A DNA stretch of 57,900 bases, counting the filler, from Sluysia triapertura (taxonomy: Eukaryota), in assembly GCA_046118255.1 (NCBI GenBank). It is 4 parts of 4 records of this genome, joined end to end, with 100 filler letters (N's around TTAATTAATTAA, not from the genome) between each part and the next. Parts side by side here need not be neighbours in the genome. Positions count along the whole stretch, not along the records: positions 19,070 to 33,114 come from JBJNIA010007881.1; 3 more parts are not named here. One strand, 5' to 3'. Below are positions 22,343 to 29,502 of the stretch, in pieces; positions within the stretch are counted from its first letter, which is position 1, and each line of letters starts with the position of its first letter. The position numbers and the translations under genes are program-made. The notes beneath the pieces were generated by a model that saw nothing but the letters and a program-made list of their open reading frames with translations, searched no databases and was not told the DNA's origin.

Positions 22343-22500
22343 TGTTAGACTTCATAAAATGGACTGACCGGAGATCGAACCCAGGACCATCGCTGCACAG
22401 TTCGATTGCTCTACCACTGAGCTATCAGCCCCGTCTAACGATTTCATTTATATTATATTTAATTTTACCACATGACACTTTCAGGCCTTTTACCCCAACA
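22343..22500 (-). mobile_element. tRNA-cassette element, copy 1 (158 bp, TSD ATAA)
   Basis: TGTT...AACA termini, with ATAA at 22339-22342 and 22501-22504. Internal tRNA-like cassette at 22360-22431. Homologous to the other three copies. Confidence 0.8.
22360..22431 (-). tRNA. tRNA-derived pseudogene/cassette (Cys-like), non-canonical anticodon arm
   Basis: GGGCTGATAGCTCAGTGGTAGAGCAATCGAACTGTGCAGCGATGGTCCTGGGTTCGATCTCCGGTCAGTCCA. It has a 7-bp acceptor stem (GGGCTGA/TCAGTCC), D stem GCTC/GAGC, T arm with TTCGA, and A and B boxes, then TTTT. The anticodon stem is only 4 bp with a 10-nt loop. Confidence 0.6.
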
Positions 22501-23019
22501 ATAACAATAGATTTTACTTACTTAAATAAAATCTCAATAATTTCAATATTCATTAGATCAAGTATAAACTATCACAAATTTTTATTATTTTACTAATGAT
22601 ATTTATTCAACCCAAGAATTTCGTTCTTAATTCAAAATAACAATAACATAATAATCACAAAATCAAATATAAGTCGTTATTATAAATTTCTGCATAAACA
22701 ATAATACATGTTAATTAAATAAAAATGACCAAATTTCAAAAGTAGCAATACTATTTATGACAATGTTCAGACCATAATAATCAATCCAAAGAAGCCAGAA
22801 GTGAAAAAAAAATTTATCAATATATAGAAATTTGAAAATAATAAAAATAATATTTAAAATTTTCGGATAATTTTAGTCTAACTTAATATCGATTAAATAT
22901 TAATTTGGTCAGGGATATTCCCAAAAATCAAAGTTATCAAGATCTAAAAAAGTCAAATTAATAATATTGCTTAAATATTTCAAAATAATTTTATTTTATC
23001 TTCGTATAAGAAAATTATG

Positions 23020-24190
23020 GAAATAATTTGGGCAAGGATCCTCCCAAAATCAAATTTATCAATAGCTAAAAGGGTCAAATGATAAAAACTTAAGGATATC
23101 CCAAAAAAATTTACTGCTAATAACAATAACAATAATAATAATAAAAATAAAATTAAAATAACAAAAATAAAATAAAGTCTTACCCAAATCATGGATATTC
23201 TTGATTGTGTGGTAAAATTTTTAAGTTTTTCATTTTATACTCTGTCATCCAATCAATCCTAGGTTTCACAAGCAAACACTTAATTACATAAATTATCCAA
23301 ATATCCTTTGATAATTAGACCGACAATAACAACTTTGACAATTACATGGTACTGTCTGTTAAACTTCATTAGGTACAAAACACAAAAATTTGATTTATTA
23401 TTAACCATCATTTTCTTTTACTCTACTTAATCTATTTTTATTTAAATTACTTCTCGCATTAAAATAATAATCAACAATATTGTTAACGTGCATAAAAATA
23501 ATGAATTTAAATTCACTTTTTAGAATTTAATTGATTTTCAATATTTCTAATTAAAAATATTTAAGGCTTGTATTCTCAAACAAACCATTCTAGAAACATT
23601 TCAAACTCACTTATAGATTCTCCTCTCTTGTAGGAATCATTATATTTGTATCATTCCAAGTATAAAAAATTCAACATTCCATAATTAAGAATTAATTAAA
23701 CTTCGACTTTTCTAAATCTTAAATCTTTCCATGCATGAACTCGGTCAAACCATACTTTCATCGAAGTCTTTTTAAAACAAATACATACAATTTCAAATTT
23801 AACATAGCATACCAAATGCAAAAGTTATACACAAAAACGTGCTTTTTCTTAATTAAGTTAATTAAGATTTTAATTAATTAATCTATCTTATTTCATGTCT
23901 AAAGGTTTTATTAAGGTCCTAAAGTTATTTTATAGTTTATAGGGCATTCGAGAGACTCTATATGTTTTCACCTTCACCTCTCTCATTCCTTTTCTACTTC
24001 TTCATGTTAATTATTACCATACTATATTTATCCTTAATACCAATAACAATGATTTTTATTCTCAAATATTATAAAGATTTTATAAGATTACTCGAAGATC
24101 TTAGATGCCTGTCGATGTTTCAAGAATGCTTAACGGCTAATGAAGTCTCAGATGATCTCCAAGTTCACAAATTCATAGGTATCTAATGCC
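23020..24190. repeat. Left arm of a ~1.1-kb diverged inverted repeat (partner ~24965-26090)
   Basis: Collinear reverse-complement blocks, e.g. catcgaagtctttttaaaacaaatacataca (23759) vs tgtatgtatttgttttaaaaagacatttcgatg (25342), and tcttatttcatgtctaaaggttttattaagg vs ccttaataaaacctttaaacatggaataaga. Confidence 0.85.
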
Positions 24191-24361
24191 TTTAAAGGTT
24201 TTCCAAGTCCATCTCGAACCTTTATAAGGTCTCAGACTATTATGTGTCTTTGGAACTCCAAGGTATTCTTTAACTCTCAACACAACTATAATGGTTTCCA
24301 CCTTCATCATTTTATATTAATTCTTCATGCACCTATAATTTCATCCATCTTCTGTTCCAAT

Positions 24362-24745
24362 TAATGATGGATATCGACTCTATTGTCGACAATCAAATAA
24401 AAATGGCGGCAAATCTATCATTCTCAAAGTTCGAGATAATCATGTTAAAGTCGATAATCGTTGGCTTGTACTATATTCACCGTTATTTTCGAAAAAATGC
24501 AAAATCGGTGAAATTGATTAAATGTATTTGCAAGTATGTTAGCAATGAAAGCGATATGGTAGGTTTTGCGGTAGGAAATGCAGTTGAGCCTTCTAATAAA
24601 ATCGACCAATATCAACTAAGACACTACATTAGTAGCAATTAAGAAGTTTGGCGCATTTTATTGTTTCAAATACAAAAACGATATCCAACAATTGTCTATT
24701 TAGCATTGTATCTTGAAAATGGACGTGTATTTTACAACGTTACAC
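24362..24745 (+). mobile_element. Helitron Rep/helicase coding remnant (pseudogenised)
   Basis: Frameshifted translation NDGYRLYCRQSNKNGGKSIILKVR..VDNRWLVLYSPLFSK..SVKLIKCICKYVSNESDM..KIDQYQLRHYISSN*EVWRILLFQIQKRYPTIVYLALYLENGRVF. This matches the conserved Helitron block DGYPLYRRR / DNRWVVPY / SIKYICKYVNKGSD / RYISSNEAVWRI / HLENGQRVYF. Confidence 0.88.
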
Positions 24746-24964
24746 ATGAAAGAGCTTTTGCCCATTTTGGGATTGCTCAACTGTGACACAATAAATAAGT
24801 AGTGAACATATAATACAATAAAATGAGAAAGAACTGATTGAACATAAAAACATTAATGGAATACGAATCATGAAGAAAGCATTTGTAATAATGTTGACAG
24901 CTGAAGAATACCTTGAAATTCCGAAGATCTATGTAGGGTAGGGAGATGGGTTTGGAAAAAATTT

Positions 24965-27562: not shown

Positions 27563-27727
27563 TGTTATATTTCATTAAATGGATTCGAACCCGAGCCCTC
27601 TTACCTCACAGTTGTGTAGTTCGGTTCTCTGAACACTAAAATATCAGTCCCGTCTAACAATTTTATTTTATTATAGTCAATTATACTATCATTATTCTAA
27701 GTGGCACTTTAATACTGTACCTCAACA
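27563..27727 (-). mobile_element. tRNA-cassette element, copy 3 (165 bp, imperfect TSD ACAT/AAAT)
   Basis: Minus strand reads TGTTGAGGTACAG...TGTTAGACGGGACTGATATTTTAGTGTTCAGAGAACCGAACTACACAACTGTGAGGTAAGAGGGCTCGGGTTCGAATCC...ATATAACA. Flanks match at 3 of 4 bases. Confidence 0.75.
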
Positions 27728-28374
27728 AAATCATCGAATATCACTATAGACTAAATCGATATTGTAGTACGAACATTTGCTTTACAATGAAATAAAAAGG
27801 GTTTTTCTAGTAAACTTGAAAGAAAAAATAGTTAAATAAATGTATTTGTTATTAGTATATACATGTGGATTTAATTATGGATTTAAATATTAACACAATG
27901 TGCAAAATAGCAGGGCAGGAGGTGGTTGAAAAACATATTTTGTATAAAATTACTACAAAGTAATAAGTTTAAAAATAAATTAAATAAGTTAAATAAATAA
28001 AATATAACGGCACCAAGGTAATAATAAAGAATCAGTATTAACTTAAGCAGAATTTTTTAAGTTGCTATGGATTTTAAAAGTTATAGTATATAAAAATATT
28101 TGGTTACAACCTATTCGGATTATGTTGAACCAAAAGGACTGGATCTAAAATTAAATTAATAATAAATTTATAGTAATAGCGAAATTACTAATAAAAATTA
28201 AATCAATAGTGAAATTAATAATAAAAAATTAACAATTAAAAAATAATTATAAAATTAGTAAAATTTACAATAGCTAATAATGTAATTATTGAGGCTATTA
28301 TTAATAGAAATAATGATAATAAATGTAAGAGATGATATACTCATAAATCGCGCACGACAAGAAAGATAGTAATG

Positions 28375-28780
28375 AGATAGCATATTAAAAACCTATAAAA
28401 ACATTAAAATATATTTTAGGATATGAAACTGATAAAAGTATATTTGTTAAATATTTAAATTAAATTAATTAAAAAGGTTTTGTAAAATAATTTTGGATTA
28501 AAGTGATATATTTTAGAAAAGCTAGACATTGAATGACAGGTATTATTGTAACATTATTAATAGATAAATGTAATTTTTGCTATTTAAAATCACAGAGATA
28601 ACACAAGAAATTATTATTTTAACTAATTTTAAAGAAATAACGTATCATAGAAAAATCAGATAAACTAGAAGCACATATATAGAATGAATCCTTACGAAGG
28701 AACGATTCCGAATCTCATATTTATTTAATCAAAAATGTATTACGCATCGAAAAATGACTTTCACAAGTTATAAGCTAAAA
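28375..28780. repeat. Dispersed repeat; inverted paralog at ~32640-33025
   Basis: agatagcatattaaaaacctataaaaac...cgattccgaatctcatatttatttaatcaaaaa matches the reverse complement of ttttgactaaataaatatgaaactcggaatcg...tttttaacatgctatct. Confidence 0.7.
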
Positions 28781-29345
28781 TTAGAGAAAATAATATCAAA
28801 ATTTAAGTTAATGATTATATCAAAAAATATGTTATTTTATTGAAAAAAGTAAAGTTAATTAATCATACCAATAATTTTTAGATGAGTGAGACTTGGCAAA
28901 ATGTGACAGATTTAATTTTAGTTGGTTTGGATAATTAGTGTCGATTTCGTTCGGACAAGGAATTGAATATGTGTATATTATGCGTGATTTAACATTTACT
29001 AAATAAACGAGCTGATTTCGCTTTTATTTTCATATAAGAATTATTGGGATTGTGAAAAAAAATTATAATTCGTTTATTGTCATTGAGCCTAAAGCCGTTA
29101 GGGAGATTCCAGTTATATTATTGGAGAATAACGGTTTGTATTACCTCATTTTATATTAATTATTTTGATTTAATATTTGAGGGACATTAAATTTTCGGTT
29201 GAATCACCCGTGATTAATTTTGTAGTTTTCATGCTATTCGATGTATGATGTAACAGTTCTTTGACATAACACTTGTTTGGGTTATTTAACTTTGATTCGT
29301 GAAAATTTATATTTATTGTGATAATTAATAAATTGTATTAATTGT

Positions 29346-29502
29346 TGTTGAGGTACAGGCCTAAAAATGGTTCCACTTAGAATAATTATATTGACTATAA
29401 TAATAAAATTGTTAGTCAAAGATGATATCTCAGTGGTCAGATCATCAAACTGCAGAACTGTGAGGCAAGAGGTCCCGGGTCCGAATCCTAGTTAGTCTAA
29501 CA
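29346..29502 (+). mobile_element. tRNA-cassette element, copy 4 (157 bp, TSD TTGT)
   Basis: TTGT|TGTTGAGGTACAGGCCTAAA...TGTTAGTC..GATATCTCAGTGGTCAGATCATCAAACTGCAGAACTGTGAGGCAAGAGGTCCCGGGTCCGAATCC..GTCTAACA|TTGT. Confidence 0.8.

Follow-up and report, generated by a model that had tools for sequence, protein, structure and literature searches.

Four old insertions in Sluysia triapertura resemble solo LTRs of a tRNA-bearing, Helenus-type miniature retrotransposon

In a 57.9-kb window of the Sluysia triapertura genome (assembly GCA_046118255.1; the window is the whole stretch of DNA analyzed here), we characterized four related elements, E1–E4, which are probably old solo long terminal repeats (LTRs) of a Helenus-type TRIM (terminal-repeat retrotransposon in miniature), that is, a miniature, non-coding LTR retrotransposon with a tRNA-derived RNA polymerase III (Pol III) promoter in its LTR. 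The tRNA-bearing kind of TRIM is already in print: Helenus, or TRIMp3, comprises tRNA-bearing miniature LTR retrotransposons of animals and fungi, described in 2024 with 4-bp target-site duplications (TSDs) in animals and with solo LTRs (Kojima 2024, PMC10886601). The novelty of kind implied by the initial annotation, an account made from the sequence alone, therefore did not hold; what is new probably lies in the host lineage and in the family itself.

Homology, termini and target-site duplications

E1–E4 can be aligned end to end (Table 1), and a leave-one-out hidden Markov model (HMM) built from three copies recovered the fourth at near full length in every case (E 5.6e-19, 7.5e-15, 1.6e-19 and 3e-16), so their homology is not circular; the four units do lie at the coordinates and on the strands first assigned to them. 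In the multiple alignment, E3 and E4 are 80% identical and the other five pairs 68–70% (20–32% diverged overall), and from this 68–80% identity the copies are old insertions. No fifth copy, full or partial, was found in the window; one candidate at ~10450–10510 was dropped, having neither the ends nor homology.

Element ends were fixed by homology before the flanking 4-mers were compared. All four copies begin with TGTTG and finish with CA, the terminus on the opposite strand reading TGTTA in three of them, and the outer inverted repeat is 2 bp long in E2, which finishes in ...AGCA rather than ...ACA, and 4 bp long in the other three copies. The termini initially proposed thus stood in part: TGTTG and CA apply throughout, the longer 5′ motif quoted is exact only in E4 (three of four copies lie within 3 mismatches), and the 3′ motif (GTCTA)ACA fails for E2. 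Each copy is flanked by 4-bp TSDs which, in element orientation, read TTAT/TTAT (E1), AAAG/AAAG (E2), ATTT/ATGT (E3) and TTGT/TTGT (E4); three are exact and that of E3 carries one mismatch. Given the window background of 0.011 for exact 4-mer pairs, the probability of at least three exact pairs among four is ~5e-6, and none of the copies showed an exact duplication at a length of 2, 3 or 5–8 bp. The 150-bp flanks are unrelated among copies (scores 46–82, against a background of 62 ± 13), and cross-copy TSD pairs were exact in 0 of 12 comparisons. Since the flanks are unrelated and each copy has its own TSD, E1–E4 are four independent insertions, as had been claimed. Termini fixed as TG...CA and a duplication of constant 4-bp length together are the signature of an integrase-type enzyme.

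Several arrangements joining the copies to one another were rejected. E1 and E2, or E3 and E4, as termini of larger elements, and same-strand copies as an LTR pair from a single element, were dropped on the TSD comparison, in which each copy's own duplications match and those between copies do not. An origin of E1 and E2 from the large palindrome between them was dropped since their outer 300–600 bp score at background level. Insertion guided by a neighbor's Pol III start, as is generally known for Ty3, was also set aside, the gaps between copies being variable at 0.9–4.0 kb.

An AT-rich leader precedes a decayed tRNA cassette

Each copy opens with a leader of 60–68 bp and 24–31% GC, which agrees with the ~60–70 bp of AT-rich sequence given in the initial annotation. 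The inner part (85–98 bp, 40–51% GC) consists of an 8-bp motif, a tRNA-like cassette that begins ~70–77 nt into the element, and a short tail without A-rich or simple-repeat sequence. The internal tRNA-derived cassette with A and B boxes was borne out, in E1 by ARAGORN and Rfam and in E2–E4, which are too decayed for a tRNA call by either tool, by the parts of both boxes that they retain. The motif in front of the cassette does not read as previously quoted in E1, where it is CGTTAGAC, or in E4, where it is TGTTAGTC. The anticodon loop of E1 is distorted and ARAGORN assigns it no anticodon; with E2–E4 undetected by both programs, a functional tRNA gene was rejected. The T4 run directly following the E1 tRNA part is a candidate Pol III terminator.

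E3 and E4 both carry a ~9-nt insertion in the anticodon/variable region and both lack the 3′ acceptor strand. They nevertheless occupy different targets, and hence the cloverleaf-less form with its B box was itself mobile. Its mobility suggests a promoter role for the cassette. We tentatively derive the cassette from tRNA-Cys, given a 20-nt D-arm stretch of E1 that by eye is identical to a tRNA-Cys(GCA) entry in the available portion of the Schmidtea tRNA tables, and the CTGCAGA loop retained in E4.

Comparison with Helenus and other Pol III-bearing TRIMs

Animal Helenus LTRs measure 104–323 bp, a range that includes the 146–165 bp of E1–E4, and have a 4-bp TSD wherever Table S1 of that study states one; solo LTRs with TSDs are common, LTRs are more numerous than internal parts, and some families consist of solo copies only (PMC10886601). 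E1–E4 resemble them in having an A/B-box tRNA cassette inside a TG...CA repeat, a 4-bp TSD, solo copies and a non-functional tRNA, and, as judged by eye from parts 1 and 6 of the 11-part supplement, in the order of leader, tRNA, short and often T-run-containing tail, and terminal CA. All three conserved Helenus motifs are found in E1 only, one of the four copies, and each single motif in two of the four. We consider it likely that the family works like Helenus and is a member of it. There are also differences. In E1–E4, the 8 bp complementary to the 3′ end lie inside the element, not at its terminus, and the cassette resembles planarian tRNA-Cys, whereas Helenus families were aligned to Thr, Lys and Val tRNAs (PMC10886601).

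Helenus hosts include six animal phyla (PMC10886601). Platyhelminthes are absent from Table 1 and the supplement of that paper, where searches of the supplement for "Platyhelminthes" and "Schmidtea" gave 0 matches. As flatworms are missing from the host table, a flatworm Helenus is probably a new phylum record. In the later literature within our partial coverage, which excludes Repbase Reports and most subscription journals, two papers cite Helenus only in passing, and no planarian report was found.

Other TRIMs are less similar. Cassandra of plants and Ajax of nemerteans likewise place a Pol III cassette within a TRIM LTR; theirs, however, is 5S rRNA, not tRNA, and the TSDs of Ajax are 5 bp. 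As far as the available portion of Koziol 2015 (PMC4558846) goes, ta-TRIM and lennie of Echinococcus are flatworm TRIMs with 4-bp TSDs, Gypsy-type helpers occur in flatworms, and ta-TRIM of taeniid tapeworms also has many solo LTRs. The main text of that paper does not contain the term "Polymerase III", the available portion mentions tRNA only as a primer, and ta-TRIM transcripts are described as spliced and present in oligo-capped libraries, a description that sets ta-TRIM apart from E1–E4.

The insertions and their anatomy are read directly from the four copies; for the full-length form, its transcription and its helper we follow the model of Helenus and Cassandra. A full element would comprise LTR, primer-binding site, short internal part, polypurine tract and LTR. 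Pol III transcription would begin just upstream of the tRNA part in the 5′ LTR and stop past its counterpart in the 3′ LTR, with the leader corresponding to U3, the tRNA part to R and the tail to U5, and the cassette would have the function of a promoter instead of that of a tRNA. A Gypsy element, the type that mobilizes animal Helenus families (PMC10886601), would provide reverse transcriptase and an integrase with a 4-bp stagger in trans, and LTR–LTR recombination would then leave a single LTR between the original duplications.

Several observations weigh against this reading. The two-LTR structure that defines this kind was not seen, all four copies being single in the 57.9 kb, and same-strand copies have no TSD in common; TGG, as expected of a primer-binding site, stands next to the 3′ end in 0/4 copies and a G-rich polypurine tract adjoins 0/4, both differences from Helenus that are nevertheless expected for solo LTRs. 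The outer inverted repeat of 2–4 bp is shorter than the ~6–8 bp seen by eye in several bivalve LTRs in the available part of the Helenus supplement. A text search of the whole supplement, in which line breaks can hide matches, left five of six motifs from E1–E4 unmatched, and the sixth was a generic tRNA D-arm. In the Schmidtea tRNA tables (PMC7962491), four of five motifs had 0 matches and the family did not appear among the rows consulted. An exact 24-letter pattern had 0 matches in collections of metagenomes and of viral and prokaryote genomes, which we count as limiting; a 20-letter pattern gave one metagenome match that we rejected as chance, homology stopping at those 20 letters and no tRNA being present. 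T runs in the leader never exceed 2 in any of the four copies, which fits, weakly, a need for Pol III read-through; the lack is non-significant, with 9% of 68-bp windows and 15–29% of shuffles free of TTT, and the copies are related. Finally, E1–E4 are clustered in 7.2 kb of the 57.9 kb (P ~0.007 if random, post hoc). We tentatively read this as a transposon-rich interval, in view of the long inverted repeat and the DDE fragment nearby.

Alternative origins of the family

One alternative involves the internal 8-mer. E2 and E3 contain, just 5′ of the tRNA part, 8 bp that are exactly complementary to the 3′ end of E1/E4, and such an exact cross-copy match is unusual (shuffle p ~0.003, post hoc). 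Within single copies the complement is non-significant (shuffle p 0.11–0.87), and folding of the inner part gave z = -1.7, -1.1, +0.3 and +1.6, with no conserved structure. The 8-mer may have survived from an ancestral LTR that was shorter, or it may form an RNA stem. It is unlikely, in our view, that the 160-bp unit is a complete, single-unit tRNA-promoter element inserted by an integrase without a two-LTR stage or long terminal inverted repeats (TIRs); such an element may have arisen by joining a 60–68-bp 5′ extension to a ~95-bp core with its own 8-bp inverted repeat. In a milder version, the family may be an independently born planarian TRIMp3 whose LTR was lengthened by an upstream shift of plus-strand priming, and the old LTR start with an A-rich purine tract may have been fossilized within the new LTR.

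It is likewise improbable that the 160-bp unit is a complete non-autonomous DNA element of the cut-and-paste type, with the tRNA as passenger or promoter, and that its mobility came from an integrase-like DDE transposase of Ginger2 or of some related superfamily with TGT ends. All four copies are indeed single units, their clustering could reflect local hopping, and, in the available portion of Bao 2010 (PMC2836005), Ginger elements combine TGTNR ends with 4-bp TSDs, to which TGTTG and the opposite-strand TGTTA of three copies conform. The same source, however, gives TIRs of 40–270 bp for Ginger1 and 50–180 bp for Ginger2, against the 2–4 bp found here, and specific targets: CCGG or CCGT/ACGG (Ginger1) occurs at 0/4 sites, and RTATAY (Ginger2), a preference only and assessed on few sites, at 0/4 reconstructed sites. 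GingerRoot, from what was accessible of PMC6839031, has 6-bp TSDs and 100–150-bp TIRs. The copies are also too diverged to be near-identical neighbors, and a literature search of partial coverage for tRNA-bearing non-autonomous DNA transposons yielded only a general survey of transposable elements. The initial annotation had left two options, a Cassandra-like, tRNA-bearing solo LTR or TRIM that is not a short interspersed nuclear element (SINE), or a Ginger-type miniature inverted-repeat transposable element (MITE); the former is the best supported and the latter conflicts with the TIRs and targets.

A further, doubtful possibility is that E1–E4 are solo LTRs from a longer element of Gypsy type, possibly autonomous, that had acquired a piece of a tRNA or SINE in its LTR, so that the element would not be a TRIM and Pol III would be optional. 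The ends and TSDs suit this origin equally well, and many Repbase LTRs contain tRNA-like pieces, only the short ones being named Helenus (PMC10886601). Against it, the tRNA part and tail fill 85–98 of 146–165 bp and leave the 60–68 bp of the leader for a Pol II promoter, and no long open reading frame (ORF) adjoins any of the four copies. Despite the tRNA homology and the A and B boxes, it is highly improbable that E1–E4 are ordinary SINEs derived from a tRNA or clustered tRNA genes and pseudogenes of the host, and SINE status is excluded: the tRNA part lies internally, after a conserved leader, the ends and the 4-bp TSD are fixed, the tail is neither A-rich nor a simple repeat, and the anticodon arm is distorted (E1), deleted (E2) or expanded (E3/E4).

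If E1–E4 are indeed solo LTRs of a Helenus-type TRIM, such elements reach a seventh animal phylum, and the view that miniature LTR elements captured tRNA promoters repeatedly and independently gains support. As the concept is already in print, what is gained concerns their distribution and origin, not their mechanism. Pol III transcription of Helenus itself is unproven (PMC10886601), and planarians are experimentally tractable, so that Pol III drive of Helenus could be tested there. Copies such as E1, called a tRNA by two tools, inflate tRNA gene counts; ~4,100 tRNA loci are predicted in Schmidtea, and the family was not seen in the available part of that filtered list (PMC7962491).

Host lineage

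An ORF at 15851–16960 (-) encodes Rab geranylgeranyl transferase alpha (RabGGTA), and pieces of the RabGGTA gene, together with a C-terminal leucine-rich repeat exon, extend over 12338–16960 (-). The protein is 52% identical to that of Dugesia japonica, 35–40% to those of parasitic flatworms and 36–47%, over shorter spans, to those of other animals. A tree built from 17 of the 28 retained proteins places it in a group with Dugesia and one further relative (support 100/99). Judging from this one gene, the most likely host is a triclad planarian at some distance from Dugesia.

Table 1. Positions of E1–E4, their internal features and flanking duplications in the window
Feature	Position	Strand	Description
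E1	22343..22500	-	158 bp; putative solo LTR; sole copy keeping a near-complete tRNA cloverleaf
E1 tRNA-like cassette	22360..22431	-	ARAGORN; Rfam RF00005, 43.2 bits; A box 22414-22424, B box 22371-22381
E1 T4 run	22356..22359	-	directly after the tRNA part; element positions 142-145
E1 internal 8-mer	22433..22440	-	complements the E1 3′ end, 7/8; closing stem in the E1 fold
E1 TSD copy 1	22339..22342	+	ATAA
E1 TSD copy 2	22501..22504	+	ATAA
E2	26492..26637	+	146 bp; A box 26569-26579; B box 26599-26609; internal 8-mer 26553-26560; anticodon arm deleted
E2 TSD copy 1	26488..26491	+	AAAG
E2 TSD copy 2	26638..26641	+	AAAG
E3	27563..27727	-	165 bp; A box 27633-27643, decayed; B box 27581-27591, perfect; internal 8-mer 27652-27659
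E3 TSD copy 1	27559..27562	+	ACAT
E3 TSD copy 2	27728..27731	+	AAAT, one mismatch
E4	29346..29502	+	157 bp; A box 29426-29436; B box 29478-29488; internal 8-mer 29410-29417 (7/8)
E4 TSD copy 1	29342..29345	+	TTGT
E4 TSD copy 2	29503..29506	+	TTGT

Other repeats and gene fragments

Between E1 and E2 lies an inverted repeat (23118–24215 / 24943–26037) with arms of ~1 kb at 70% identity, which does not extend to either element and is probably a palindrome or else an old element with long TIRs or of the foldback type. Broken frames in its spacer (24339–24786, +) resemble Helitron Rep/helicase by motifs familiar from general knowledge, unconfirmed by Pfam, Atlas, PDB and phage searches. A decayed pogo/Tigger-like transposase occupies ~30900–31800 (-), its DDE_1 match (E 0.0016) falling under the Pfam cut-off, as does that of a cullin neddylation-domain fragment at 46648–47040 (+; E 5e-8). 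The ORF at 39552–39902 (-) has no Pfam match and resembles the C-terminus of a Tc1/mariner transposase, again by generally known motifs. A 229-bp MITE-like near-palindrome (45002–45230) is nested within 44726–46500, which has 244-bp inverted arms of 79% identity. Direct repeats of ~350 bp at 51198–51527 and 53850–54187, 67% identical and 2.65 kb apart, are possibly old LTRs or a local duplication. Tandem arrays occur at 34206–34504 (105-bp units, inside a 361-aa open frame of no clear family) and at 19806–20219 (144-bp units).

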